A DNA stretch of 39,590 nt from a virus (lineage: Duplodnaviria; Caudoviricetes): positions 1 to 39,590 of the IMG/VR virus record IMGVR_UViG_3300023252_000179; one strand, 5' to 3'. Of this stretch, positions 1 through 17,800 are shown piece by piece. The first letter of the stretch is position 1. Each line of letters opens with the position of its first letter. The notes below the pieces were generated by a model. The model did not search any database, was not told where the DNA came from, and saw only the letters and a list, made by a program, of their open reading frames with translations. A program made the position numbers and the translations under genes.

Positions 1-1161
1 TCATCCACTTGCAAATTGATTCATCGTATCAATAGATTTAATTTCATCCTTTTCAAATGAATGTACATATACTTTCAATATCGTATTAGGATCATCCCCA
101 AGTATTTTTGCTACTGTAACAAGTGTTTCACCGCGGGCAAGTAAAATAGAAGCAACGGTATGTCTTAAACCGTGAGGTGATATTCTTCGTAATTCATACT
201 TATTACAAATCATATCGATTGCATCCTCGACATAAGTCAAACCGATTGGGCTACAACCTTGTCGCGATATGAAAACAAAATCCTCATCATTGTGTTGCAT
301 GCTATTATTCCATTTCTTTTTTATACACCAAGCTTTATATGTTTTTAATTGGACGTATAATTCGTCATTCATACTGATTTTCCTATAACCATTTTCACTC
401 TTCGGTGGTCCTAGTCCAGTTCTAGTACGAGCTTTATTAATCGAAATAGACTTGGTTTTAAAATCAAGGTCTTTCCAAGTTAATCCCATCATTTCGCCTT
501 TACGCATACCTGTCATTGCTAAAGTTAAAATAGATGTATATCTAGTTGTAGGATCGTTTTCTTTCACGCATGATAGAAAATGTTTTAGTTCTTCCTCTGT
601 ATAAAAGTTATCTTTGTCACTGGTAGGTGCAGCACTAAAATCCATTTTCTTAAAGCGATCTTTGGGCAGGATTTCTTCATCAACAGCATAAGATAAAGCA
701 GACTTAAACACTCTAAATATTCCTTGAATGGTTGCACGTTTTAACCTATATGAAACTAACACATCAATCAATTCTCTTTGTAGAGTCATTTTAGTGAGTT
801 TTTGTAATTTGTAATGGCCAATAAGAGGTTTAATATGGTTATTATAAGACTCTTGATAAAGGATATACGTGCCAGGACGCCACACGCTTTTTTTCATTTC
901 AAACCAAATTTCCATCCATTGAGCCACGGTTAAATTTGCATTTTCGACATATCTATCATTTCCATCTAATACGTTTGCTTTTACTTCTATCAAAGCACGC
1001 TCAGCTGCTAGTTCAGTATCAAAACCTTGCTGAGATTTTTCCTTTCGCTTTCCAAATCGATCATAGTATTTATAGCGAAAAGCATACTTCTTTTCATTTT
1101 CTGAATCCTTGTACCAGTAAATGCAATCTTTTTTAGTAGTATAAAACTTTTTCCTAACCAT
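1..1161 (-). CDS. int: Tyrosine integrase with N-terminal arm-binding domain
   Basis: TGMRKGE and HGLRHT...Y catalytic motifs; start set at ATG 1161 behind GGAGG (in-frame upstream starts exist at 1215 and 1227). Confidence 0.95.
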   Translation of the reverse strand: MVRKKFYTTKKDCIYWYKDSENEKKYAFRYKYYDRFGKRKEKSQQGFDTELAAERALIEVKANVLDGNDRYVENANLTVAQWMEIWFEMKKSVWRPGTYILYQESYNNHIKPLIGHYKLQKLTKMTLQRELIDVLVSYRLKRATIQGIFRVFKSALSYAVDEEILPKDRFKKMDFSAAPTSDKDNFYTEEELKHFLSCVKENDPTTRYTSILTLAMTGMRKGEMMGLTWKDLDFKTKSISINKARTRTGLGPPKSENGYRKISMNDELYVQLKTYKAWCIKKKWNNSMQHNDEDFVFISRQGCSPIGLTYVEDAIDMICNKYELRRISPHGLRHTVASILLARGETLVTVAKILGDDPNTILKVYVHSFEKDEIKSIDTMNQFASG

Positions 1162-1245
1162 TGTGATTTCCTCCGTTTTAGCACGAGCAGGTACATTGAA
1201 GAAAATCGTTTGCATCACTCCTTTCAAATGTAAATATTTTAAATG

Positions 1246-1259
1246 GGAATATATGTTCT
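1246..1259 (-). promoter_or_regulatory. Candidate LexA (SOS) box upstream of int
   Basis: AGAACATATATTCC on the minus strand, one mismatch from the Bacillus GAAC-N4-GTTC core, next to a TAAAAT -10-like hexamer. Confidence 0.4.
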
Positions 1260-1270
1260 TTTTTTATGTA

Positions 1271-1717
1271 TTAAAATAGCCCCTTACATTTCAGTTTTAC
1301 CAGCTCTAGCGGTACGTTATGTAATGAAGCTATATCGTAAATAGTTTTTTGTTCATCGTAATCAAATAAATTTTCATCTGGTATTAAAAGATGAGCAGCA
1401 AAAGTATTTGCTTCTATCTCTACTTTATCAACAGAGAAGAACGTATTTGTTCTCATGAAAGGGGTGTTTAGTTTAGTATGTAAAATTGCGTGACCTAATT
1501 CATGAGCACAAACAATAAGTTGTTCTTCGATATTTAAGTTACTGTTGATAAAAATAAACCTATTACGTTTTTCGTATTGATAAAAACCTTTTATATCGGG
1601 CGGTAGATCCCAATAAAAAATTTCTATTTTTAAATATTTGGCTAACGAAAATGGATTCCGGGTACTGTACTTTTTATATAAAGCCCCTACTTTTTGTTTA
1701 ACCCACTCCATCCGCAT
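1271..1717 (-). CDS. immA: ImmA/IrrE-family metallopeptidase (anti-repressor protease)
   Basis: CAHELGH zincin motif and EIEANTFAAHLL; lies between repressor and integrase. Confidence 0.93.
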   Translation of the reverse strand: MRMEWVKQKVGALYKKYSTRNPFSLAKYLKIEIFYWDLPPDIKGFYQYEKRNRFIFINSNLNIEEQLIVCAHELGHAILHTKLNTPFMRTNTFFSVDKVEIEANTFAAHLLIPDENLFDYDEQKTIYDIASLHNVPLELVKLKCKGLF

Positions 1718-1731
1718 CCCCTCGAATCGTA

Positions 1732-2157
1732 TTAATCTTCTTTATCTCTATATTTATTCGGAGTGTACTTTTTATTGTTCTTCTTTGCTAGACGTACACC
1801 AAATTCCATGGCTTCTAACAAAGATTCTTTTGCTTCATCGCTCATCGGTTCACCATCAAAAAGTAGGCCAGTTGCAGAGGATAAATCCTCGCGAAGTTCT
1901 GCCATTCGTTTAGCTATATCACGTTCATCTTTAGATTCTTTATTAGTAGTATTGGTTGTCTTACCCAGTAGATAGTCACTAGGACAAGATAAAGCGATGG
2001 ACAATCTAGCGATATCTTCAGCGCTTGGTTCGGTGTAACCACGCTCCCAATTTGAAATAACTTGTGGTGAAACAGAAATTTTTTGAGCTAACTGCATTTG
2101 TGTGTAGCGCAACTTTTTTCGTTGTTCTTTAATACGAGAGCCTATTATATCACTCAT
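1732..2157 (-). CDS. XRE-family phage repressor (ImmR/CI-like)
   Basis: N-terminal HTH (TQMQLAQKISVSPQVISNWERG); no S24 autoprotease domain, consistent with cleavage by ImmA. Confidence 0.92.
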   Translation of the reverse strand: MSDIIGSRIKEQRKKLRYTQMQLAQKISVSPQVISNWERGYTEPSAEDIARLSIALSCPSDYLLGKTTNTTNKESKDERDIAKRMAELREDLSSATGLLFDGEPMSDEAKESLLEAMEFGVRLAKKNNKKYTPNKYRDKED

Positions 2158-2195
2158 TTAAACACCTCTTTTCTATAAGAGTAGAATACCCAAAA

Positions 2196-2300
2196 CTAAC
2201 GGAATTTGATATATTACTAACGGAATTTGAGAAATTAATTATAAAAACGGTTGACATTAACGGAATTCGTTAGTATATTGTTATTAACGGATTACGTTAG
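2196..2300. promoter_or_regulatory. Lysis-lysogeny switch: operator array and rightward sigA promoter
   Basis: TTGACA(2251-2256)-17-TATATT(2274-2279); palindromes TAACG-N5-CGTTA at 2258-2272 (in the promoter spacer) and 2285-2299; degenerate CTAACGGAATTTGA copies at 2196 and 2217. Confidence 0.88.
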
Positions 2301-2318
2301 TCGAAATGAGGTGATAAT

Positions 2319-2576
2319 ATGATTTATGAGAATGTAAAAAAAATACGCATGGCACGCGGTATAACCAAAAGACGTGTAGCTAAGGGTGTAAATGTAACAG
2401 AAATGACTTACGGTCGTATTGAAAGTGGAATTAGTAAATTGAGTGCAGAACACTTAAAAATTATAGCTACAATACTTGGTGTTCCAGTAGCAACTTTTTT
2501 TGATGACAAACTAACGGATTCCGTTATAAAAGAGATTTCTAGTATTTCATTTTCTAAAGAAAGGCAATTGGCATAA
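2319..2576 (+). CDS. Cro-like XRE HTH regulator
   Basis: HTH (VAKGVNVTEMTYGRIESG); first gene divergent from the repressor; RBS GAGGTG. Confidence 0.88.
   Translation: MIYENVKKIRMARGITKRRVAKGVNVTEMTYGRIESGISKLSAEHLKIIATILGVPVATFFDDKLTDSVIKEISSISFSKERQLA
2512..2526. promoter_or_regulatory. Distal repressor operator inside the cro-like gene
   Basis: TAACGGATTCCGTTA, the most symmetric copy of the switch palindrome. Confidence 0.75.
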
Positions 2577-2627
2577 TCAGACCATTACTTAGAAATTGGA
2601 ACGAATTTAAACACAGGAGGTTTTGCC

Positions 2628-3407
2628 ATGAAACACTTGCAAGTTATTCACAAACAAGTTGTATTAACGAAAAAATTTGAAGTATACGGATCTTTAGATA
2701 ATCCGTTGTTTTTAGCTAAGGATGTAGCTAGTTGGATTGAACATAGTGACACATCCAAAATGATTCGTTCAGTAGACGAGGATGAGAAGGTAAAGAATAA
2801 TGTTCCTACCCTTGGTGGATTACAAGAATCCTGGTTCCTGACAGAAGATGGTTTATATGAAGTGTTAATGCAATCACGTAAACCTATAGCAAAACAATTT
2901 AAAAAACAGGTCAAAACCATTTTGAAAGACATCCGCCTTAAAGGTGGCTATATCGCTACAACCGAAGATGACGATGAAATGACAATCTTAGCGAAAGGAT
3001 TTCTAATAGCTCAAAAAACTATCGAAAGTAACAAAAGAAAAATTGTTGAACAGCAAATGTTAATTGAAGAACAAAAACCTAAAGTTCTATTCGCAGAAGC
3101 TATCCAAGCAAGTAAAACAACTATTCTTATTGGCGAATATGCCAAAATCTTAAAGCAAAACGGTGTAGACATAGGAAAAAAAAGACTTTTCGAATGGCTT
3201 AGAGATAATGGCTATTTAATCAAACGAAAAGGTTCTGACTATAACACACCGACTCAAAAGAGTATGGAGTTAGGTTTATTCGAAATAAAAGAAACACCAA
3301 TTCATCACACTAGTGGCGAAATCAGCATTTCAAGAACTTCAAAAATAACAGGTAAAGGGCAATCCTACTTTATTAATAAGTTTTTGACAAAGGAGGTTGC
3401 CATATGA
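2628..3407 (+). CDS. Phage antirepressor (BRO-N + KilAC/ANT)
   Basis: PLFLAKDVA...LTEDGLYEVLMQSRKPIAKQFK (BRO-N); KPKVLFA...ITGKGQSYFINKF (KilAC). Confidence 0.93.
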   Translation: MKHLQVIHKQVVLTKKFEVYGSLDNPLFLAKDVASWIEHSDTSKMIRSVDEDEKVKNNVPTLGGLQESWFLTEDGLYEVLMQSRKPIAKQFKKQVKTILKDIRLKGGYIATTEDDDEMTILAKGFLIAQKTIESNKRKIVEQQMLIEEQKPKVLFAEAIQASKTTILIGEYAKILKQNGVDIGKKRLFEWLRDNGYLIKRKGSDYNTPTQKSMELGLFEIKETPIHHTSGEISISRTSKITGKGQSYFINKFLTKEVAI

Positions 3408-3625
3408 TCCAAGAGCAAATCGAAGATGATGTAACACTTTTCTGGGATATAGAAGACATCATTCGAGAAACCCGCTATAAAAAAACATTTCTAGAAGCGA
3501 ATCTGTTATGTGATCCGAGAATTAAACGGTTTGAAAGAAAGCCAAAACCAAGAAGTAAAAGAATATGGCTTGCAGGACCAACAAAAGAAACTATTAAAAA
3601 TATCATAATGAACGAATGGAATTAA
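3404..3625 (+). CDS. Small DNA-binding protein, probable excisionase-like
   Basis: 73 aa, wHTH-like pattern (WDIEDI...LLCDPR...KRIW), typical position, AGGAGG RBS. Confidence 0.55.
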   Translation: MIQEQIEDDVTLFWDIEDIIRETRYKKTFLEANLLCDPRIKRFERKPKPRSKRIWLAGPTKETIKNIIMNEWN

Positions 3626-3731
3626 AAATAAAAAAGCACGAGCAGGTGCAATTAAAACAGGAGAGGCCAGGGCAAATGGCCTCGTCAAACTACCAATCTA
3701 GTAAGAGGTTGGGGCAAATCAACCTCTTATC
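3626..3731 (-). ncRNA. Predicted antisense sRNA with two UUUGCCC-loop hairpins
   Basis: Hairpins 3663-3683 and 3702-3729; minus-strand TGGTCT-17-TATTAT (3763-3735) puts +1 at the base of the first hairpin; ends in a short GCAC/GTGC stem plus U-tract; complementary to several lytic mRNAs. Confidence 0.65.
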
Positions 3732-3810
3732 TCAATAATAAAGCTAACTTAGCAAAGAGACCATGCACAGAGTGCATATATGCAATTTAAGCATAAAAGG
3801 AGAGGGCAAT

Positions 3811-4089
3811 ATGGATATAGATGTTGGAAGTCTATTAAAAAAATGCCGTAAGAAGGCAAAGCTTTCACAGGAGGCATTCGCTGATTTAATGCACACGACT
3901 CAATCAACAATCAGCCGGATTGAAAAGAACATCATTGCATGCGAAGTAAGTTTCTTGCAAAAGGCTGCTAGATTAACAAATTCAGAGGATGTAGTGATTA
4001 CCGCATTATTCAGTGTAGATGCAATCGTACAGGTAGCAATGCAAATGCAAGTCACTTTTATAGGAGGATTATTCAATTGGATCCTTTAA
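3811..4089 (+). CDS. XRE-family HTH regulator
   Basis: LSQEAFADLMHTTQSTISRIE HTH; RBS AAGGAG before ATG 3811. Confidence 0.85.
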   Translation: MDIDVGSLLKKCRKKAKLSQEAFADLMHTTQSTISRIEKNIIACEVSFLQKAARLTNSEDVVITALFSVDAIVQVAMQMQVTFIGGLFNWIL

Positions 4090-4331
4090 AACTAATCAAC
4101 GACAAAATCATTAAAGAAAAAGCATGTATTGATGACTTAATTAAAGAAATTGCAATGCATACACAAAACGGACGATACCAGTTAGCAGCTGATCGTGGTT
4201 ATGACATGCAAAACTCAATCAATCGAATCCGACAGTTAGAAGGGCAAAAAGGGTTGTATTTAATAGCTCTTAAATATGTAGGAAAAGGAATAGACGTTGA
4301 GGTGGTGAAGAAACATGCGCATCAAGCCTAG
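4077..4331 (+). CDS. Hypothetical phage protein
   Basis: AGGAGG RBS, TTG start, overlaps neighbours. Confidence 0.7.
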   Translation: MDPLKLINDKIIKEKACIDDLIKEIAMHTQNGRYQLAADRGYDMQNSINRIRQLEGQKGLYLIALKYVGKGIDVEVVKKHAHQA

Positions 4332-4434
4332 AGCGTGGAGACATATGTCATTAAAGCAAAGGTTAATATATGTACATTTCTTTTGCGACAAGAAAGTATT
4401 AGAAAAGTTAAATGGCAATAAAAAAGCTGCTTAA
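4315..4434 (+). CDS. Small basic hypothetical protein (39 aa, MRIKPRAWRH...), not in the ORF track
   Basis: GAGGTG RBS, ATG 4315, TAA 4432-4434, overlaps the upstream gene end. Confidence 0.55.
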   Translation: MRIKPRAWRHMSLKQRLIYVHFFCDKKVLEKLNGNKKAA

Positions 4435-4538
4435 TCGCTGGAACGATTAAACAGCAGTGCGGTAATAGTCTACCCACATTATAACACAAAATCAGACGTT
4501 TGAAATATAAAGTGCTAAAGCACAAAGGGAGCCTAATT

Positions 4539-5276
4539 ATGACATTAGAAAATGCAATCAAAAGCGTATTAGAACAAAAGATGGTCGACGGCACAGTTGA
4601 AAAGTTGGTGGGAGAGAAGGTTGAACAAGGGATTGAACGTGCTCTAAATGATTTATTCGGATCATACGGCGACATCACAAAAGTAATAGAGAAGAAATTA
4701 AAAGATGTTATGGTGCCACAAATCGAAAGGCATGATTTTAGTAGATATTTAGTTAAATTGGATTCAGTTCTTACAGAACTTTCTAATGCTACTGCTAAAC
4801 AAAATAAAAAACTTTTGGATAACTTCGCAATTTTAATGAAAGATACGCCAAATAAAATTAATGCTTCAGAGATTTTTGAAAAGTGGATGAAGCTTTCTGC
4901 TGATGATATTGAGACGGAAGGTTTAGAAGTGGATTACGATGACCGTCCTACTTACGAAAGTGTAGAAGTATCACTTTCTTTCGAACAAATCGAGGGACGT
5001 TCGTGGTCATCATACGAAAACGGACAACTAATTTTTGAATGTGAACATGATGAACAATTGAATTTCATTGTGCCCTTACAGCGTTGGAAAACACTAGATG
5101 ATTATTGGACAATTACTGACCTACAAAATGTTGATATAACGTCCATTAAAAACATTAGTAAGTTTGAAGCATTCATTCGCTCATTAAAACAAAACTACTC
5201 AAAAATCTATGTAGATACTGAATACGAAACAGATCATTTATCTCCAACAGCCGAGCCAGAGGCTGAATGGTCTTAA
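4539..5276 (+). CDS. Hypothetical acidic phage protein
   Basis: Long ORF; start moved to ATG 4539 behind AAGGGAG. Confidence 0.75.
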   Translation: MTLENAIKSVLEQKMVDGTVEKLVGEKVEQGIERALNDLFGSYGDITKVIEKKLKDVMVPQIERHDFSRYLVKLDSVLTELSNATAKQNKKLLDNFAILMKDTPNKINASEIFEKWMKLSADDIETEGLEVDYDDRPTYESVEVSLSFEQIEGRSWSSYENGQLIFECEHDEQLNFIVPLQRWKTLDDYWTITDLQNVDITSIKNISKFEAFIRSLKQNYSKIYVDTEYETDHLSPTAEPEAEWS

Positions 5277-5289
5277 TAAAGAGACGTTT

Positions 5290-5375
5290 GCGAGTCGAAA
5301 CTCGCTCTCGTCAAGCAGCTTGTAAATGGTTGGTTAGCCGTTTCCTCTAAGGAATTTACAAGCTGCTTGATGGGA
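5290..5375 (+). ncRNA. Structured intergenic RNA element (22-bp stem closing a three-way junction)
   Basis: 5306-5327 pairs with 5354-5375 including G-U pairs; two inner mini-hairpins; extra hairpin 5290-5305. Confidence 0.5.
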
Positions 5376-5458
5376 AAAGCCATCAAAAAAACCACTGCGC
5401 GAACAGTGGCCTTAACAAATAAATATTTACATCATCATACCACAGGAGGGCAAAAAAG

Positions 5459-7483
5459 ATGAAGAAAATTGAGTTGGTAGTTTTAAAATTACGTGATTTT
5501 AAGGGCATTAAATCACTTGATATTCAATTAGACGGTGGCAATGCTGAAATTTTTGGTGACAACGAAGCAGGTAAAACTACAACATTTGATGCGTTTTTAT
5601 GGCTGTTGTTCGATAAGGATAGCAACAATAAAAAGGACTTTGCTATCAAGTCTTTAAACAGTGACGGATCCGAACAACACAACTTGGAGCATACGGTTGA
5701 AGGTACATTTTTAATTGATGGTGTGTTTGTTACTTTAAAGAAAATCTACAGAGAGGTTTGGACAAAAAAACGAGGTGCTGCAAACAAGGAATTTACAGGG
5801 CATACCGTAGACTACGCGGTGAATGATGTACCGCTAAATAAGAAAGAGTACACAGCCAAAGTTGCTGAGATTGTAGATGAAGAAAAATTCAAGCTCCTTA
5901 CATCGCCTACTTATTTTAACGAACAATTGAAGTGGCAAGAAAAAAGACAGCTGTTACTTGAAATCTGCGGTGACATTTCAGATGAAGATGTGATTGCATC
6001 AAATCAATCACTGGCTAAATTAAATGAACTTCTTAACGGTAAGTCGATGGAAGATATGAAGAAAATCATTACTAGCCAGAAAAAACAAATTAATGATGAG
6101 CTTGAAATGATTCCAGTACGTATTGATGAAATTAATAAAATGATGCCAGAAACGACTGTAGATATTGAAAAGATGCGTCAACAAGTTGAGCAAATCGAAG
6201 CTGATATGGATGAACTGCAGCAACAGAAAATCCGAGTGAAAAACGGTTCATCTGTACTTGATAAACAACGGCAGTTACAAGTGTTAGAAATGCACCAAAG
6301 CGACTTAAAACGCACTATTGAAGCTGATAGCATGCAAGAAATCAATAAGCTTCAAGTGCGTGTTCAGGAAGCGCAAGGCAACGTACAAATTATTCAATCT
6401 GAAATTAAACATAAAGAGAACTACAAAAACTCTAAGGAAAATGAGTTGCAACAGCTATCTAATGACATCCAGCGTACTGAAAATCAGTTAATTGAGTTAC
6501 GTAAAGATTGGGCACACCACAATAATACTCAATTTGAATATGAGGATAAATGCGAGTGTCCTACTTGTAAACAAGAACTACCTCTTGAACAAGTTGAGGC
6601 TGCTCGAAATGAAGCACAAGCGCAGTTTAATGAGGAAAAGGCTCGTAGGTTATCAGCTGTAAATGAAAAGGGAAAAACTTTAGCGCAAGAAAAAGAGCAA
6701 AAAGTAAATCGCCACAACGAAGTAAATGAAGATATTTTTAGCGCAAATATGGAATTGGATGCTGCTAAGAACAAGCTAGAAACAGCACAGAAAGAGTTAA
6801 GTAAATATCAAGATAAGTTACAGCAAGCCCAAACATCGGTGCCTGATGTGACAGTGACTGATGAATATAAATCTATCACTCTACAAATTGAAACATTACA
6901 AGCTGAAATTAAGCAGTTAAACGAACATGCTCATGAAGCTGTTGCTGGTATCGACGAAGAAATAGAAAAATTAAAGTTCATTCGTAACGGCTGCAACAAT
7001 GCGTTATCACAACACGCAAACATTGAAGCGAGTAAGGAGCGAATCATTGAGCTGGAAGATCAACAGGTGAAACTTGCTCAAGAGTACGAAAAGCTAGAGC
7101 AAACTACATTCCTTATCGAAGAATTTATCCGAACAAAGGTAAACATGCTCACTGAACGCATTAACAGCAAGTTCAAATATGCACGATTTAAGCTGTTTGA
7201 CACGCAGGTAAATGGTGGATTAAACGAGGTATGCGAAACGACATTTAAAGGCGTACCATACGGCACTGGCCTTAACAATGCAGCGAAAATCAATGTCGGC
7301 TTAGACATTATCAATACACTATCAGCACATTATGGCATCCTAGCACCTATTTTCGTGGATAATGCCGAAGCTGTAACCAAGTTTATAGATGTGGAAACTC
7401 AACTTATTAGCTTAGTTGTTTCTGAGAAGGACAAGCAGTTACGTGTTGAATTAGAACCAATCGAATACAAGGAGGCAATTTAA
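5459..7483 (+). CDS. SbcC/Rad50-like AAA ATPase with coiled coil
   Basis: Walker A GDNEAGKTT, CPTC zinc hook, PIFVDNAE Walker B; precedes RecT. Confidence 0.88.
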   Translation: MKKIELVVLKLRDFKGIKSLDIQLDGGNAEIFGDNEAGKTTTFDAFLWLLFDKDSNNKKDFAIKSLNSDGSEQHNLEHTVEGTFLIDGVFVTLKKIYREVWTKKRGAANKEFTGHTVDYAVNDVPLNKKEYTAKVAEIVDEEKFKLLTSPTYFNEQLKWQEKRQLLLEICGDISDEDVIASNQSLAKLNELLNGKSMEDMKKIITSQKKQINDELEMIPVRIDEINKMMPETTVDIEKMRQQVEQIEADMDELQQQKIRVKNGSSVLDKQRQLQVLEMHQSDLKRTIEADSMQEINKLQVRVQEAQGNVQIIQSEIKHKENYKNSKENELQQLSNDIQRTENQLIELRKDWAHHNNTQFEYEDKCECPTCKQELPLEQVEAARNEAQAQFNEEKARRLSAVNEKGKTLAQEKEQKVNRHNEVNEDIFSANMELDAAKNKLETAQKELSKYQDKLQQAQTSVPDVTVTDEYKSITLQIETLQAEIKQLNEHAHEAVAGIDEEIEKLKFIRNGCNNALSQHANIEASKERIIELEDQQVKLAQEYEKLEQTTFLIEEFIRTKVNMLTERINSKFKYARFKLFDTQVNGGLNEVCETTFKGVPYGTGLNNAAKINVGLDIINTLSAHYGILAPIFVDNAEAVTKFIDVETQLISLVVSEKDKQLRVELEPIEYKEAI

Positions 7484-7485
7484 CA

Positions 7486-8373
7486 ATGACAAATCAATTA
7501 GCGATTATTCAAAAAGATATTACAGATAGTGTAAACAACAAGTTAGGAGAACTACAAAAAGAAGGGTTAGTAATTCCGCAAAATTATAACGCTAGTAATG
7601 CATTAAAATCTGCATTTTTCAAACTGCAAGAAGTAAAAGATAAATCAGGTAAACCGGCATTAGAAGTATGTACTAAGGAATCTGTCGCTAACTCGTTATT
7701 AGATATGACAGTACAGGGGTTAAGCCCAGCAAAAACACAATGTTATTTCGTAGTGTATGGCACTCAGTTACAGATGCTTCGCTCATACTTTGGTACACAA
7801 GCTGTACTTAAACGCTTAAGCAATGTAAAGGATATTTGGGCGAATGTTATTTACAAAGATGATGTATTTGAATACGAAAACTACCACGGACGCGAACGTT
7901 TAATTAGTCATAAAACATCATTCGAAAATCGTGACAAAGACATTTTGGGAGCTTATGCGGTTGTTCAAACTGAAAGTGAAGAAATATTAACGGTTATGAC
8001 AAAAAAAGAAATCGAAGCATCATGGGGGCAAAGTAAAACATCTCAATCTGTTCATAAAAAGTTCCCTCAAGAAATGGCAAAACGTACAGTTATTAATCGT
8101 GCAGCCAAAGCCTTTATTAATACTTCCGACGATAGCGACTTATTGATTGATGCAATAAATCGATCAACTGAAGGTGAGTATGAACCAACAGTAAAAGACA
8201 TGGGGGATATTGAAGAAGTAAAACAAGAAATTGAGCAAAATGCTAATTCAGAGGATTTGGATATTAAGGAACAACCTTCTGCAACTGTTCAGGAAGCTGA
8301 ATTTGTAGAAGTACCGCAAAAACCGTTACAAGAACAACAGCAAGCATCATTTACTGATGGACCTGGTTTCTAA
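7486..8373 (+). CDS. recT: RecT-family single-strand annealing protein
   Basis: GLSPAKTQCYFV..G and QEMAKRTVINRAAK motifs; acidic tail. Confidence 0.9.
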   Translation: MTNQLAIIQKDITDSVNNKLGELQKEGLVIPQNYNASNALKSAFFKLQEVKDKSGKPALEVCTKESVANSLLDMTVQGLSPAKTQCYFVVYGTQLQMLRSYFGTQAVLKRLSNVKDIWANVIYKDDVFEYENYHGRERLISHKTSFENRDKDILGAYAVVQTESEEILTVMTKKEIEASWGQSKTSQSVHKKFPQEMAKRTVINRAAKAFINTSDDSDLLIDAINRSTEGEYEPTVKDMGDIEEVKQEIEQNANSEDLDIKEQPSATVQEAEFVEVPQKPLQEQQQASFTDGPGF

Positions 8374-9074
8374 TGATCCAAATCAAAACTCTAGCAACAG
8401 GAAGTAAGGGGAATTGCTATCACATTACAGACGGTAGCACCCCTCTACTCCTAGAGTGTGGTATCAGCTTCAAACAGATACAGCAGGGCGTTAATTTTGA
8501 GACTTCAAGCCTTAGTGGTGTACTTATTACCCATGAACACAAAGACCACTGTAAAGGCGTGGAATCGGTGTTAAATCGTGGGTTAGATGTTTATATGTCA
8601 AAAGGTACTCAAGAGGCTTTGCAGCTACAGCATCACCGTATTAATACAGTCGAAAGTAAGAAGCAATTTAGGGTAGGCACATGGACGATATTGCCGTTTG
8701 ATGTACAGCACGATGTAAATGAGCCGTTAGGTTTTTTGCTACAGTCAGACAACGGTAGCAAGCTGTTATTCGCAACAGATACTTACTATGTGAAATATCG
8801 ATTTACAGGTCTAACTCACATCATGATTGAGTGTAATTACGACCAGCAAACATTGGACGACAACGTAGAAAGTGGCCGTATTCATCCAGCAATGCGAAAA
8901 CGAGTTATGAGGTCACATTTTAGCTTAGAAAACCTACTCGAATTTTTTAGGGCAAACGATTTGAGCAAGGTTGAGGAAATACATCTACTGCACTTATCAG
9001 ATGGCAATAGCAACGTAGATCGTATCTTTAAAGCAGTTGCAAGGGCAACAGGCAAGATGATTTTTATTCCGTAG
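8373..9074 (+). CDS. Metallo-beta-lactamase-fold nuclease/hydrolase
   Basis: GSKGN, THEHKDH, HD, ATDT, LLHLS motifs. Confidence 0.9.
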   Translation: MIQIKTLATGSKGNCYHITDGSTPLLLECGISFKQIQQGVNFETSSLSGVLITHEHKDHCKGVESVLNRGLDVYMSKGTQEALQLQHHRINTVESKKQFRVGTWTILPFDVQHDVNEPLGFLLQSDNGSKLLFATDTYYVKYRFTGLTHIMIECNYDQQTLDDNVESGRIHPAMRKRVMRSHFSLENLLEFFRANDLSKVEEIHLLHLSDGNSNVDRIFKAVARATGKMIFIP

Positions 9075-9089
9075 GAGGGGCAAGGGCAA

Positions 9090-9869
9090 ATGGCTGAAAG
9101 AAATTTCAAGGGCGTATGGATTCCGAAAGAAATATGGCTAGCAAAGGAATTAGGGTGGTCGGAAAAAGTACTACTGGTGGAAATTGATTCATTAGACGGT
9201 GAGAATGGTTGTTTTGCATCTAATGAGTATTTGGCCGACTTTTTCAAACTATCAAAAGACCGCATTTCCAAGATGATTTCTAGTTTGAGAGATAAGGGAT
9301 ATATAACGGTTCAGCTTGTATATAAAGAGGGCACAAAACAAATTGATAAACGAATTATTCGCATTGTACGGCAACCATACCCTATAGGCGAAAACACCGA
9401 TACCCCTAGTCGAAAACAACGAGAGGGTCTAGGTGAAAACACCGATACCCCTATAGGCGAAAACGCCGAGGATAATAATACAGTAATTAATAATACATCT
9501 AATAATACAAGAGACAAAGACAGACAGTCGTCTAGTCCACTCATAAATATGAATTTCGAACCTATTAAACAACTATTTGAAAGCAATGTTCGTATCGCAA
9601 CATTGGCTGATTGCAACAACATACATGAATCACTGGAATTTTACGAACCAGAACTTATTAAAGAAGCAATCCTAACTGGATCTAACAGTGCTCGAAGCTT
9701 TAAGTACATTCTTTCGATTTTAGATAACTGGCGTAAAGAGCTTGGTGTAAAAACATACGCAGATTGGCAGGTGAAGATAGATGCAAAAAACGGACGACAG
9801 AATGGCAGCAGTAATGGAGGAGCTTCAAGCACGAAGCCAACTGTATTCGGAAACTATTGTAGCGATTGA
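9090..9869 (+). CDS. Phage replication initiator (N-terminal wHTH, DnaD-like C-terminus)
   Basis: CFASNEYLA wHTH; FKYILSILDNW DnaD-like motif; internal iterons. Confidence 0.88.
   Translation: MAERNFKGVWIPKEIWLAKELGWSEKVLLVEIDSLDGENGCFASNEYLADFFKLSKDRISKMISSLRDKGYITVQLVYKEGTKQIDKRIIRIVRQPYPIGENTDTPSRKQREGLGENTDTPIGENAEDNNTVINNTSNNTRDKDRQSSSPLINMNFEPIKQLFESNVRIATLADCNNIHESLEFYEPELIKEAILTGSNSARSFKYILSILDNWRKELGVKTYADWQVKIDAKNGRQNGSSNGGASSTKPTVFGNYCSD
9385..9510 (+). repeat. Probable replication origin: four 16-bp iterons plus AT-rich tract
   Basis: TAGKYGAAAACRMCGA at 9385, 9407, 9430 and 9454 (22-24 bp period), followed by AT-rich 9471-9510. Confidence 0.8.
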
Positions 9870-10623
9870 AGAAACTAACTACAACTGTCCAAAGTGTAAG
9901 GATACTGGCAGTTACTTAGTCCGCAAAAAGAATGGCTACTATATCCGAGGTGTTGAAGTTGAGCAGGACTATTATGTCGAATGCGAATGTAGCAAGATGC
10001 TCAAGATTAATAGACTCATTAAATCGAGTGCCATTACAGAAGAGTTTCAGAAAATGAGCCTTAAAAACTTCTCGACAGATAATGTTCATCCGAAAGTTGT
10101 TGAAATGAAAAGTAAGGCAAAACAGTACTATGCAGCCTTTGAAGAGATTAGAGGTTTCAGACAGAACAGCATCATGCTTATTGGACAACCTGGTTGTGGC
10201 AAGACGCATCTATTAACCGCCATATCTAACTACCTGATGCATGCAAAACAAGTGCCTGTTCTGTACTTCCCATATAAAGATGGCATGAACAATATCGCTG
10301 CTAACAACTTTGAACGAAAGAACGAAATTATGGATCGGATGAAAGAGGTTGATGTCCTGTTCATAGACGATTTGTTCAAGCCGATTGGCGGAAAAGTCGA
10401 TGTGAAAACGTGGCAGACCGAGGTCATCTTTGAAGTAGTCAACTATCGCTATCTGAACAACAAACCGTTACTAATATCCAGCGAGTTATCTCTGGACGAC
10501 ATGCTTTATATTGACGAGGCGCTTACAAGTAGGCTGTTTGAAATGGCTCAAGATTTCACGGTAACGATTCCAAAGGATATGAAAGTGAATTACCGATTAC
10601 GCAAGGTATTTGAAAATAGATAG
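9781..10623 (+). CDS. DnaC/IstB-like helicase loader ATPase
   Basis: CPKC...CEC zinc motif, GQPGCGKTHL, LFIDD; exact start uncertain. Confidence 0.9.
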   Translation: MQKTDDRMAAVMEELQARSQLYSETIVAIEETNYNCPKCKDTGSYLVRKKNGYYIRGVEVEQDYYVECECSKMLKINRLIKSSAITEEFQKMSLKNFSTDNVHPKVVEMKSKAKQYYAAFEEIRGFRQNSIMLIGQPGCGKTHLLTAISNYLMHAKQVPVLYFPYKDGMNNIAANNFERKNEIMDRMKEVDVLFIDDLFKPIGGKVDVKTWQTEVIFEVVNYRYLNNKPLLISSELSLDDMLYIDEALTSRLFEMAQDFTVTIPKDMKVNYRLRKVFENR

Positions 10624-10658
10624 AGGGGCGAACAGCCCCTTGATTGGAGGGTGAAGGG

Positions 10659-11039
10659 ATGGCAACAAATAAAATTGAACGGGTAGAAATCATCAATAAG
10701 TTAATTAAGTTCATTTCAGAACGTGGTCGTCGTTTCTTCTATTCTGGTTCAAATGACAGAACAGCTTCAATGATTTTGAAGAAAAATCGAGTTTATATTG
10801 TGGACCATAGAACAGGCCAAGAAGTTTATGCATATGAGGGGTTCTCGCATAAAGGGTTTTCGCATGGAGGTACATTGTGGGCGTTGGTATGTGACTTTTC
10901 TTTCTTTATTCGCACAGGTAAAAGTGCAAACGGTAAACATGGTTACGGTGGATTAAATAGTGGCGGTTGGGGCCATAGCGATGAAATTCAAAAAGAAATA
11001 ATCGATTTTGCCAAAGAGATTGGCTATTTGAAGGGGTGA
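10659..11039 (+). CDS. Hypothetical phage protein
   Basis: RBS GGAGGGTG, ATG 10659. Confidence 0.7.
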   Translation: MATNKIERVEIINKLIKFISERGRRFFYSGSNDRTASMILKKNRVYIVDHRTGQEVYAYEGFSHKGFSHGGTLWALVCDFSFFIRTGKSANGKHGYGGLNSGGWGHSDEIQKEIIDFAKEIGYLKG

Positions 11040-11045
11040 AACGAA

Positions 11046-11255
11046 ATGAATCCAGTATTTTTAGGCTTTGGAGTTATACCATACGCAATCATTATTTGGC
11101 ACATGGATGGTCAAGCAGAACACAGAACGATTTGTGGAGATGAGCAAGATATCCAAGACATGCTCAAGCGTCATCAAACTGAGGGGGATTTTTACAGCCG
11201 ATATGATGCGGCTAAGGTTTACTATCCAGAACAGAGAAAGGAAATGATTGCATGA
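11046..11255 (+). CDS. Hypothetical phage protein
   Basis: RBS AAGGGGTG; ATGA overlap with the next gene. Confidence 0.65.
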   Translation: MNPVFLGFGVIPYAIIIWHMDGQAEHRTICGDEQDIQDMLKRHQTEGDFYSRYDAAKVYYPEQRKEMIA

Positions 11256-11638
11256 GTAGAGAGATTAAGTTTCGGGCATGGGAAGCGAGAGTGAAAAAAT
11301 ATATTGATTGGGATAACTTCATGAATAATCCTTTTGGAACTTGGGGGATGAAGGCTATTAATAATGAACGTTATTACTTCCAACAATACACAGGCTTAAA
11401 GGACAAGAACGGCAAAGAGATTTATGAGGGGGATATTTTAAAAACTTCTTCAGTAAGTGGAAAAGGAGACATCATAACAACTATAGAGTGGAGTGAATTT
11501 AGTTGGAAAGAGAAATTAATTTATTCACCTATTCACCAATTTTACGAGTATTTTGATTTCTCAGATGAAACTGGTGTAGATTCCGAAATCATCGGCAACA
11601 TCTACGAAAACCCTGAACTACTGGAGGCAACAGCATGA
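11252..11638 (+). CDS. YopX-family protein
   Basis: REIKFRAW...[18 protein letters not shown]...[11 protein letters not shown] signature. Confidence 0.93.
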
Positions 11639-12147
11639 TAAACCGAGTTGTGATAGTTGGCCGACTTACTAAAGATCCTGAGCTTCGATATACACCAAAC
11701 GGAATTGCATCATGTCGTTTCACAGTTGCAGTCAACCGTACATTTAAAGGACAGAACGGTGAACAGGAAGCCGACTTCATAAATTGCCAGGCATGGCGCA
11801 AACAAGCCGAGAATCTAGCCAACTTCATGAAGAAAGGTAATTTAATAGGTTTGGAAGGGCGAATCCAAACAGGCAGCTATGAGGGGCAAGATGGCAAGCG
11901 AGTTTTTACTACTGACGTTGTAGCAGATAGCATTCAGTTTTTAGAACAGCGATCAAACAGCACAGGAGGCGCACAGAACACACCAAACTATCAATCTAGT
12001 ACAAATACAGGTGGAACGAATCAAACGCCACCACAGGGCAATTATGGCGGTAATAATAACCAGCCAAGTTATACGAGAGTGGATGAAGATCCATTTGCTA
12101 ATAGTAAGGGGCCGATTGAGGTTAGTGAGGACGATTTACCATTTTGA
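11635..12147 (+). CDS. ssb: Single-stranded DNA-binding protein
   Basis: [20 protein letters not shown] and DDLPF tail. Confidence 0.97.
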
Positions 12148-14522: not shown

Positions 14523-15068
14523 CTATACAATCGGACTTAACAATTTAAGGATAATAGAAGCATTTACGTTAGTTTGTGTGCCTCCTGCTAAAGTTTGAAG
14601 GATTACTGCTGCAGCGGAGGAATGATTTCTAAGTGTAAGTATACCGCCAGACGGTATAGCAATTATTGCCTGACCATTGTTTTGTTGAGTACCAGCACCT
14701 GAACCATAAACTGTTTCTGGAATCGGTACACCATTTAAAAATAATGTGAATTGGTTAGGTTCAACACCTGAGACGCTGAAAGTAACCTCGTAGATTCCTG
14801 GTCTTGTAACAAAAATTTCAGAGGTTCCAGGAACATGCGTAATTCCCGGAGTAACTATACCTGTTGAATCAAAAATAATATCTGCTTCTACAGCTACAGT
14901 TTCAGGACCTAGATTATATATATATCCATATTCGCAAAGACCACTACAAGGTGTTGGTATTATAGGAGGAATAGCGCCAGTAATTCCACAGAGATCAACA
15001 GCTCTGAAGGGTCCCGATTGGCTTCCGCATAAGCAAGAACGTTTATTACAGTTACTACAGTTATCCAT
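14523..15068 (-). CDS. BclA C-terminal-domain-like (exosporium/spore surface) protein without collagen repeats (moron)
   Basis: GIYEVTFSVSGVEPNQFTLFLNG...YGSGAGTQQNNGQAII...NVNASI; Cys-rich N-terminus; GGAGGTG RBS. Confidence 0.75.
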   Translation of the reverse strand: MDNCSNCNKRSCLCGSQSGPFRAVDLCGITGAIPPIIPTPCSGLCEYGYIYNLGPETVAVEADIIFDSTGIVTPGITHVPGTSEIFVTRPGIYEVTFSVSGVEPNQFTLFLNGVPIPETVYGSGAGTQQNNGQAIIAIPSGGILTLRNHSSAAAVILQTLAGGTQTNVNASIILKLLSPIV

Positions 15069-15464
15069 TTTTTCACCTCCATTTGTAGTATTTTATTCGC
15101 TTGAAATATCAAGTAGAGGGCCATTGGCTACAAACTAGTAATTTTGTTTATTTTAATATTGATGTTTTAAAGAAAATTGGTAGCATTGTTAAACCATTTT
15201 AAATAAAGGTTACTGAACATTTGAGGAAATAAATTAAAAAAGGATCACTGAGCTGTGACCCAAAATTGAGGGAGGTAGTGACTGTCAACTAGCGCCACAA
15301 CCAAATAAGTGCGTGCGATACACTCAATGTTAAAATGTGCAGATTTAAGTTACCTATACATTAAAAAAGCCGCAGCGTTTGCAGACGCTACAGCTCGAAT
15401 TGGTTTATGCCCTTTTAAGACAATCTGGTACATGTATTATAACACACTTAGGAGGGCAAACCTA

Positions 15465-15902
15465 ATGGGCAAACAAGGGCAAATTAAAGTTACGAAAGAG
15501 AATTTACTTCAGTGGATTGAGAATTATCGTTGGATGGTTGAAACAATTGAGGAAGCAAGACAGCCGGTAGCTAAGGTCAATAACAACAGTTACATTGGGG
15601 CTAAAACAGCTATGTATGGTATTGAGTCAACATTACCAAAGGCTAGTGGAGGTACAAGTGATCCTGTGTTTACAGAGGTACAACGTCGAGTATATTCTCT
15701 AAATTATCGCATTAAAGAATACGAGGAAAAGATTGCGGAAGTGCAAAACCGCATTCCGTTTGTAGAAGGCGATAGAGAGGTAGAAGTCCTTCATAGATTG
15801 CTAGATGGGGATAGCATGCGTGCTATTGGTAAGCATATGAGATTATCTAGCACGACAATTTTTAGAGTAAGAAATAATATTTTGAGCCAGATGATTAAGT
15901 AG
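15465..15902 (+). CDS. Late transcription activator (ArpU/RinA-like, sigma70 region-4-type HTH)
   Basis: C-terminal HTH (LDGDSMRAIGKHMRLSSTTI); last early gene; AGGAGG RBS before ATG 15465. Confidence 0.8.
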   Translation: MGKQGQIKVTKENLLQWIENYRWMVETIEEARQPVAKVNNNSYIGAKTAMYGIESTLPKASGGTSDPVFTEVQRRVYSLNYRIKEYEEKIAEVQNRIPFVEGDREVEVLHRLLDGDSMRAIGKHMRLSSTTIFRVRNNILSQMIK

Positions 15903-16151: not shown

Positions 16152-16574
16152 TTGAAACAAAATCCTGATTTCTTTAATGCGTATAGTTTAGTGCATCGTC
16201 CTTTAACGAATCATACAAATCGTATTTTAGAGAAACATGAATTGTCGAGCTCTTATTGGCGTGTACTACGTATTTTAGAAAAAGCTGAGTCTAAAAACTT
16301 TGGAGACATTACAAATGCATTAATGATAGAAAAACCAGCCTTAACTAAAATCGTTAAAAAGCTTTCAACAATGGGGATTGTAGAAATTCAACGTGGACAA
16401 GATAAACGTGAAAAAATCGTAATGTTAACTGAATTTGGTAAGAAAAAAATTGATGCTATTCGTAGCGAACTTAATCCGTTTTTAGAGGCTGCAATCGAAG
16501 GTTTAAGTCAGGAACAATTAAATAGTGCGATTGAAGTACTAGAAATCATTAAAAAAAATATTACGAAATACTAA
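16152..16574 (+). CDS. MarR-family regulator
   Basis: IEKPALTKIVKKL...DKREKIVMLTEFG winged helix. Confidence 0.9.
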   Translation: MKQNPDFFNAYSLVHRPLTNHTNRILEKHELSSSYWRVLRILEKAESKNFGDITNALMIEKPALTKIVKKLSTMGIVEIQRGQDKREKIVMLTEFGKKKIDAIRSELNPFLEAAIEGLSQEQLNSAIEVLEIIKKNITKY

Positions 16575-16582
16575 GGTGAATT

Positions 16583-17800
16583 ATGGAAAAAATGAAAGAA
16601 AAATTATGGACGAAGGAATTTGTCACATTATCAGTTATCAATTTTGTTACTACAATCGTCTTCTTTTTATTAATGGTGACGATCGCAAAATATGCAGTTA
16701 GTGAATTCAATGTTTCGACGAGTACAGCAGGCTTGGCTTCAAGTATCTTCATTATTGGTTCACTGTTTGGACGTTTAGGTGGAGGTCGAATTATCGGTCA
16801 ATTGGGCAGTAAAAAGACATTATTCTATGGCTTAATTGGCTTTTTAATTACAACGTTACTTTACTTTGCAATATTTAATATTACTTTATTATTAATTTAC
16901 CGTTTATTACAAGGTGTAGCTGTTGGTTTAGTTGGTACTGCAATAGGTACAATTATTGCGCAAATTTTACCAGCCAATCGTCGAGGGGAAGGGATTGGTT
17001 ACTTCAGCTTAAGTGCTATTTTAGCTGCAGCTGTTGGACCATATATTGGTCTTTTACTAATGAAAAACTTTGATGGTTTTAATGTAATCTTTATTTTTAA
17101 TGCCATTTTAGCAGTTGTTGTTTTACTGATGTTCTTCGTAATAAAATTCCCAGAAAGTTTAACAAAACCAGTTCAATCTACTTCAACAACACAAGTACAA
17201 AATACTGGTATCTTATCTAAATTTATTGAGAGACGTGCAGTGCCAATTTCACTTGTTGCACTATTTGTTGGATTAGCCTATTCAGGTGTACTTTCATTTA
17301 TGTCGTTTTATACCGTTGAAATTGACTTAGAAAAAGTTGGTGGCTATTTCTTCTTAATTTACGCAATTGTTGTTATTCTAACACGCCCTGTCACTGGTAA
17401 GCTATTAGACGCGCGAGGCGCAAACATAATTATTTATCCATGCTTAATTATTTTTGCAATCGGTATGTATTTGTTTAGCTCTGCTACTACTTCAATTATT
17501 TTCATTATCGCTGCTATCTTCATCGGTATTGGTTACGGTAACTTTACTTCAGTAGCACAAGCCGTAGCTGTAAAAGAAACACCACGTGAAAGAATGGGCT
17601 TAGCTACTTCAACGTTCTTTATTTTTTATGATATTGGATTAGGCTTTGGTCCCTTTATTTTAGGGAAGCTTATCCCTTCAATGGGTTATCGCTCTATTTT
17701 TGAGTGGATGGTGGTAGTACTTGTAGTTTCATTCGTTTTATATTACTTTTTACACGGAAAAAAGGAATCTAATTCTCGAAAAATACTTACAAATAATTAA
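16583..17800 (+). CDS. MFS efflux transporter
   Basis: About 12 TM segments, motif A-like GRIIGQLGSKK, RRGEGIGYF; substrate unknown. Confidence 0.93.
   Translation: MEKMKEKLWTKEFVTLSVINFVTTIVFFLLMVTIAKYAVSEFNVSTSTAGLASSIFIIGSLFGRLGGGRIIGQLGSKKTLFYGLIGFLITTLLYFAIFNITLLLIYRLLQGVAVGLVGTAIGTIIAQILPANRRGEGIGYFSLSAILAAAVGPYIGLLLMKNFDGFNVIFIFNAILAVVVLLMFFVIKFPESLTKPVQSTSTTQVQNTGILSKFIERRAVPISLVALFVGLAYSGVLSFMSFYTVEIDLEKVGGYFFLIYAIVVILTRPVTGKLLDARGANIIIYPCLIIFAIGMYLFSSATTSIIFIIAAIFIGIGYGNFTSVAQAVAVKETPRERMGLATSTFFIFYDIGLGFGPFILGKLIPSMGYRSIFEWMVVVLVVSFVLYYFLHGKKESNSRKILTNN

Follow-up and report, generated by a model that had tools for sequence, protein, structure and literature searches.

The window analysed here is the whole 39,590-nucleotide (nt) stretch of IMG/VR virus record IMGVR_UViG_3300023252_000179, which gene calls and protein-family scans showed to be a near-complete temperate phage genome. 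Directly upstream of a gene for a small XRE-type helix-turn-helix (HTH) protein it carries a twin-hairpin element that is real and conserved (Table 1). We consider it probable that this element is a conserved minus-strand antisense small RNA, made from a leftward promoter activated by the HTH protein, which blocks translation of the replication initiator, the likely late activator and recombination genes through the word GGGCAA in their ribosome-binding sites (RBSs) and so favours lysogeny. A preliminary description of this DNA had proposed a trans-acting, multi-target anti-RBS RNA on the minus strand; at the level of sequence this proposal is favoured by loops held on variable stems, covariation with targets, an asymmetry of G-U pairs, a conserved -10 hexamer and a sister module with a swapped seed.

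Hairpins, conservation and predicted targets

The two perfect hairpins and their common loop were found where they had first been placed. Pattern and protein scans returned the invariant twin-hairpin core in 58 distinct Lysinibacillus-type prophage alleles; in the underlying scans, 7 of 58 rows in one and, in another, the 12 of 60 that had no second hairpin were discarded as chance pattern matches. Of the 58 alleles, 51 were aligned. In the alignment 99.6% of stem cells were paired, with one compensatory stem pair (A-U in 33 alleles, U-A in 16) and one minus-strand G-U pair. All named genome records with the same core were Lysinibacillus (15 of 21 matches, the remaining 6, non-Lysinibacillus, being discarded as chance), and the core was retained between neighbours, a gene upstream and a regulator downstream, that were exchanged among unrelated types. 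When 370 genomes of the family were searched with the HTH protein, diverged elements with new stems and the same loop were recovered, and 52 distinct hairpins carrying the common loop on many different stems were counted. A further search (R2), of 101 genomes of the family, returned eight matches (two known, one true diverged copy in G090, five judged chance), and a terminator-pattern search gave 27 loci, of which five were already known elements and the rest chance. Among named phages, no match was found to the DNA of the locus, nor to the protein sequence of the window HTH or of a longer, type-II HTH. The element had been described as belonging to no recognised named family, and covariance-model searches bore this out: Rfam has no family for it, the only match of the entire window at E<=1 was to an unrelated terminator-like model, and five related loci had no Rfam match (C4, sar and RsaE included) at gathering score. 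The region was far more stable than shuffled sequence on either strand (z -3.5 for minus, -6.3 for plus).

The RNA had been proposed to end near 3626 at a short stem followed by a U-tract. A 4-bp stem (3636-3649) with an A-tract (3624-3635) was indeed present; however, of 56 distinct upstream alleles only 27 had this third hairpin, and the proposed 3' end is therefore not conserved. Its loop is a degenerate copy of the seed (plus-strand GAGCAG here, GGGCAG or GGACAG in relatives). In alleles lacking the hairpin the upstream gene often ends in GGGCA or GAGCA, so that a third seed copy tends to remain. The linker at 3684-3701 was near-invariant in 51 alleles while its flanks took indels, a pattern explained by no target or structure.

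The 22-nt arm matched the Shine-Dalgarno (SD) sequence and ATG of the DnaD-like initiator at 20 of 22 positions, as first reported, and this was the best non-self match in the window (runner-up, 16 of 22). One of the two differences becomes a G-U pair on the minus strand, again as reported, and the other is a true mismatch. The predicted duplex had an energy of -40.3 kcal/mol, or -23.0 kcal/mol net after opening both strands, with the loop pairing with the spacer or the SD 3' edge and a separate tail covering the SD. The word GGGCAAA occurred 12 times in the window, always on the plus strand, against 4.7 expected on both strands. The shorter GGGCAA had 24 copies on the plus and 3 on the minus strand, and it lies in the initiation regions of the initiator, SbcC-like and boundary-regulator genes and in the RBS of the HTH gene itself. 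In an accessibility-weighted seed scan of 56 window regions, the boundary regulator, the SbcC-like gene and the initiator ranked first; the initiation region of the antirepressor gene (ant), which lacks the motif, ranked 21st (-4.3 kcal/mol) and is a poor predicted target. The predicted targets lie 1.7-12 kb from the element. The boundary regulator (15465-15902) is likely the late activator, a label based on its position and a weak PHROG match (phrog_36); an NCBIfam search gave no ArpU match. The RBSs of RecT (7486), SSB (11635) and resolvase (13408) have GGAGGCAA in common and are possibly weaker targets.

Downstream of the element, GGGCAA was present in 86 of 964 distinct early-gene RBS windows, which are not independent and in which it fell in 17 of 256 protein clusters, compared with 1 of 250 host RBSs; for GGCAA the counts were 125 of 964 and 5 of 250. 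Counted by cluster, GGGCA occurred in 40 of 44 initiators, 9 of 11 late regulators, 6 of 7 SbcC-like proteins and 8 of 15 resolvases. Covariation of loop and target RBS, proposed in the preliminary description as a check, was found among relatives, where the element and the initiator RBS changed in step. The extended initiator match was kept in at least six unrelated initiator families and was absent where the second hairpin was absent; within one initiator family, GGGCA was found in L134, which has the second hairpin, and not in G162, G158 or G160, which lack it. Two HTH loci without loop hairpins had GGGCA in 0 of 23 and 0 of 22 RBSs. Short-form elements went together with short-form targets (G090, G041, G088, G150, G075, G022), and in G041 and G088 private changes were common to element and target. 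Among initiator homologues without the element, GGGCA preceded the start in 0 of 38 inspected (from 42 of 80 loci), a weak control given that the hosts differ; one such homologue has GGGCA in codons 3-4.

Evidence on the strand came from element/target pairs taken with a direction-blind score, which gave a pair at 63 of 91 loci and 26 distinct pairs in all. Across these 26 pairs, 41 of 44 transitions between element and target were G-U compatible for a minus-strand RNA and three were not. Internal stem mismatches comprised four minus-strand G-U pairs, one plus-strand G-U pair and six others.

Table 1. Coordinates of the element, its promoter region and its predicted targets in the window
Feature	Position	Strand	Remarks
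Predicted small RNA, ~103 nt	3626..3728	-	+1 at ~3728, transcript inferred; 3' end uncertain
5' hairpin, loop AUUUGCCC (seed 1)	3702..3729	-	perfect stem; one compensatory pair, A-U or U-A in relatives
Second hairpin, loop UUUGCCC (seed 2)	3663..3683	-	perfect stem
Conserved linker between hairpins	3684..3701	-	conservation among relatives
22-nt arm (loop, 3' stem strand, anti-SD tail) complementary to initiator RBS and start codon	3659..3680	-	
Weak terminator-like hairpin and U-tract, loop a degenerate third seed	3624..3649	-	27/56 alleles
-10 hexamer TATTAT of predicted leftward promoter	3735..3740	-	
Operator O1, N6-N5-N6 palindrome, predicted activator site	3762..3778	.	centre ~-42
Operator O2, tandem with O1	3779..3795	.	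abuts SD of HTH gene
XRE-HTH protein, 92 aa, predicted activator of leftward promoter	3811..4089	+	
Main predicted target: RBS and start of DnaD-like replication initiator	9073..9094	+	gene 9090-9869
Predicted target: RBS and first codons of boundary regulator	15450..15485	+	gene 15465-15902; three GGGCAAA copies
Predicted target: RBS of SbcC-like gene	5443..5461	+	gene 5459-7483

The leftward promoter, its regulator and a sister module

The minus-strand TATTAT hexamer was confirmed, and in 41 of 43 distinct alleles that strand had a TA-N3-T hexamer at a distance of exactly 21 nt from O1. Its middle bases varied among alleles, which is the signature of a sigma-A -10. In 32 further, mostly more distant loci, TA-N3-T was found at 21 nt in 18, while the next offset reached 11. 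The operator half-site tracked the recognition helix of the HTH protein (HTH_3/XRE, PF01381; phrog_1373): TQSTISRIE went with TATGCA, TQSHVSKYE with TAGTCC, and SRSCISK with TGTTCC or TGTTCT. The operator centre lies at about -42, the position of class II activators. The fixed spacing, together with an operator that changes with the HTH protein, thus suggests a CII/PaQ-like activated leftward promoter, and from these sequence patterns the promoter looks activator-dependent, with the adjacent HTH protein as its predicted activator. The fixed -10/operator distance, the co-change of operator and HTH and the activator-gated module are new relative to the preliminary description. A second regulator type of 172 aa (phrog_1124; L060:4771-5289) was seen in place of the short HTH beside the same RNA core, and it goes with a TATAAT -10 allele and different upstream sites. 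A palindrome, AAGTTAACTT (AAGCTAACTT here, 3741-3750), recurs just upstream of the -10 and may be a host-factor site; in diverged alleles it recurs as a 5' hairpin of the predicted RNA.

Integrase, an ImmA-like protease and cI are encoded on the minus strand, followed by cro, ant, a 73-aa gene, the element, the XRE-HTH gene, the SbcC-like gene and RecT, and then by the DnaD-like initiator, DnaC, SSB, resolvase, the regulator at the early/late boundary and the late genes. The HTH gene belongs to the cI-repressed early operon. The RNA is therefore likely to work when the phage commits itself after infection or induction, as the CII-activated promoters of lambda do, and so at establishment rather than maintenance of lysogeny. 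Several AACGGAATT-like repeats at 2170-2310, around the cro promoter (2251-2279), are likely cI operators. Long nested inverted repeats with an A-tract upstream of the SbcC-like gene (5250-5420) may be a further structured element. Cargo genes encode a BclA C-terminal domain protein (14523-15068, minus strand) and, between the early and late regions, a MarR regulator and an MFS transporter (16152-17800, plus strand).

A sequence of events can be proposed from this arrangement. The early genes, whose order from cro through ant and the 73-aa gene to the HTH gene is observed, would be transcribed after infection or induction. The HTH protein would then bind O1 at about -42 and activate the left-pointing sigma-A-type -10, in keeping with the observed geometry and operator/helix covariation. 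The two or three UUGCCC loops of the RNA would nucleate on GGGCAA between SD and start codon, and at the initiator, where complementarity and covariation are observed, pairing would extend to 22 nt over SD and AUG. Replication and late activation would be damped. Pairing at the HTH gene's own RBS may create a negative feedback loop. The RNA could in turn be titrated by the sense transcript, to which it is perfectly complementary. The whole would resemble lambda CII-PaQ, but with a Firmicute C-rich-loop mechanism working in trans.

A class-wide search (10 of 401 genomes) led to distant HTH homologues. Those of the G507 type share 98-99% identity with proteins of cultured Brevibacillus phages (Abouo, Davies, Jimmer1/2, Osiris and Powder). 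The leftward RNA predicted for G507, like that for G706, was computed to pair better with initiation regions of its own phage than with any of about 600 foreign ones. In Abouo the best predicted targets were the resolvase gp73 and the initiator gp65, and the sigma-like gp91 ranked 4th of 36; its seed differs from that of the window and is not loop-displayed, yet it matches the same gene classes. In a cross test, the window RNA scored -43.8 on its own initiator against at best -25.8 on Abouo, and the Abouo RNA reached -38.0 with the resolvase and -33.2 with the initiator of Abouo itself but no better than -25.6 on the window, so that each RNA preferred the targets of its own phage by 12-18 kcal/mol. 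A GGACAAG seed was considered for the distant loci and was unsupported. The predicted promoter, the operators and the 5' part of the RNA are overlain in Abouo by gp55 (L395:4019-4141), which is annotated as a hypothetical gene of 40 aa and may be spurious. Phages of the Jimmer-like cluster, which are cultured and form stable lysogens (PMC4909266), carry the sister module. We regard it as an even proposition that temperate phages across Bacilli have an unrecognised common establishment module. Its activator would be an XRE protein analogous to CII, its promoter would lie at a fixed distance of 21 nt from the operator, and its trans-acting RNA would read a private, co-evolving RBS code (initiator, resolvase, late activator). 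The seed would differ from one host family to another, being UUGCCC among the Lysinibacillus relatives and a different sequence in the Brevibacillus phage Abouo.

Weighing the antisense RNA against other explanations

Several observations weigh against the antisense RNA. The transcript, its strand and its start site are inferred only. Ten RNA runs were listed, of which X1-X4 were compared with positions 1-12000 and X8, X7, X4 and X9 with 3350-4000, all as unstranded contigs and some with obvious DNA carry-over; a 10.9-kb contig of X8 at depth 201 spans the element, gives neither strand nor ends and was taken as no evidence. No -35 was recognised by eye at the predicted promoter. The plus strand of the element folds better than the minus strand, and two stems have a plus-strand G-U pair (G359; L319). 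The terminator is not conserved, its hairpin being missing in about half of the alleles (29 of 56) and reduced to the 4-bp stem here. The alleles are related, so allele and pair counts are not independent. Counted by distinct position type, the wobble asymmetry is only 10 to 2; outside the SD it is 5 to 0 position types, within the SD G is favoured anyway, and 31 element/target differences are transversions. The best phage seed target (-9.6) was outscored by one of the 250 host regions (-11.0); this thin margin makes the seed-only targets less secure than the initiator. In some phages (G159, G359, G154) loop hairpins are present but no initiator match is, and no clear anti-RBS match was found at the distant HTH loci G557, G550, G470, G403 and L381-L383, showing that the RNA arm is not universal.

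Part of this would also fit a leftward promoter that is real and mainly P_RE-like, with transcription that runs on, antisense to the 73-aa gene, ant and cro, to supply cI, trans pairing being secondary. The frequent absence of the terminator hairpin, the position of cI 1.6 kb downstream on the promoter's strand and the persistence of the promoter signature in distant loci without a clear anti-RBS match speak for such read-through. We consider it unlikely as the main function, since it leaves target covariation, the seed swap and RBS enrichment unexplained, and it is compatible with the antisense RNA as an added role. It is quite improbable that the plus strand is the functional one, its GGGCAA loops binding an RNA-binding protein as a CsrB-like decoy for a translational repressor or as nut/put-like antitermination signals. 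The better plus-strand fold, loops that equal the RBS motif and a location within the early transcript agree with this, but if a protein read the same strand, no G-U asymmetry (41 against 3 transitions) would be expected, and the fixed spacing of a minus-strand -10 would go unexplained. Nor does it fit Abouo, where a different seed outside a loop matches the same gene classes, and no candidate RNA-binding protein was found among the genes scanned.

It is very improbable that the match reflects an RBS that was duplicated and retained to mark a boundary for recombination between genome modules, with incidental hairpins. The one-directional A-to-G and C-to-T differences are not expected from homology for recombination. 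Both copies are direct repeats at module junctions, the genes on either side are freely swapped and small inserted genes inherit the initiator RBS, all as such a boundary would have it; loops kept on changing stems and recurrence with other sequence in Abouo are left without account. An SD-spacer-ATG within the second hairpin opens a 20-codon frame at 3677, from which a plus-strand leader peptide might control downstream expression. Among relatives this frame is shifted by indels in the linker (1, 2, 4 or more bases), and the leader peptide, which we hold to be barely credible, was rejected on that ground.

Relation to known systems

To our knowledge, the establishment of lysogeny in non-arbitrium Firmicute phages is poorly mapped. 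The accessible parts of the literature searched (PMC2965217 and PMC4152353 included) do not describe the element, with subscription papers and supplements, whose RNA-motif tables could hold it, outside the scope; nor do they contain a CII/paQ equivalent in these phages or a multi-target phage small RNA acting on its own lytic RBSs. If the antisense reading is true, the element would be an undescribed RNA brake tipping infection toward lysogeny, and its activator, promoter, RNA and targets are all specified and open to reporter assays. RBS spacers would then be seen clearly to evolve as an address code, and the module could supply Bacilli with orthogonal riboregulators gated by an activator.

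The C4 RNA of P1 and P7 has two loops and targets the antirepressor message at its own locus. P22 Sar is a phage RNA that occludes translation initiation and favours lysogeny (PMC12197685). The RNA predicted here would likewise occlude initiation to favour lysogeny. For Sar and C4 the target is the antirepressor message of the locus that encodes them, whereas ant is a poor target here and the predicted targets are the initiator, the late regulator and recombination genes. Non-coding or antisense transcripts of Firmicute temperate phages offer a further likeness: Listeria phage lasRNA is expressed in lysogeny and its function is stated as unknown (PMC7397523), and Bacillus aimX is pro-lytic and acts via a small protein, not RNA pairing (10.1101/2025.11.23.689978). 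RsaE/RoxS and RNAIII of Firmicutes use several unpaired C-rich motifs to pair with RBSs and block initiation (PMC2790875). The predicted RNA shares with RsaE and RNAIII several unpaired C-rich loops (two UUUGCCC and a degenerate third) and the layout of 5' hairpin and 3' terminator. Those RNAs are host-encoded and direct UCCC at a generic SD, whereas the phage-encoded UUGCCC (GCCC motif) would read a phage-private, SD-adjacent spacer word whose targets co-evolve with it.

The preliminary description had set the element in the lysis-lysogeny switch after the manner of C4 and Sar. A pro-lysogeny anti-RBS role is favoured, but given the operator at about -42 and the activator gene in the early operon of the window, the closest analogue is lambda CII-PaQ, which works at establishment, rather than C4 or Sar in the lysogen. 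The lambda paQ promoter is activated by CII, which acts on direct repeats. Here, by contrast, an XRE-HTH gene stands beside N6-N5-N6 inverted repeats, placing the regulator outside the CII family. The lambda aQ RNA made from paQ is a leftward antisense transcript within the early operon, and by reducing the late activator it promotes lysogeny (PMC12197685); the predicted RNA resembles it in being leftward and antisense, with its activator encoded in the early operon. Lambda aQ, encoded antisense within its target, is described as acting in cis on one gene (PMC12197685), whereas the RNA described here is predicted to pair in trans at several RBSs 1.7-12 kb away.
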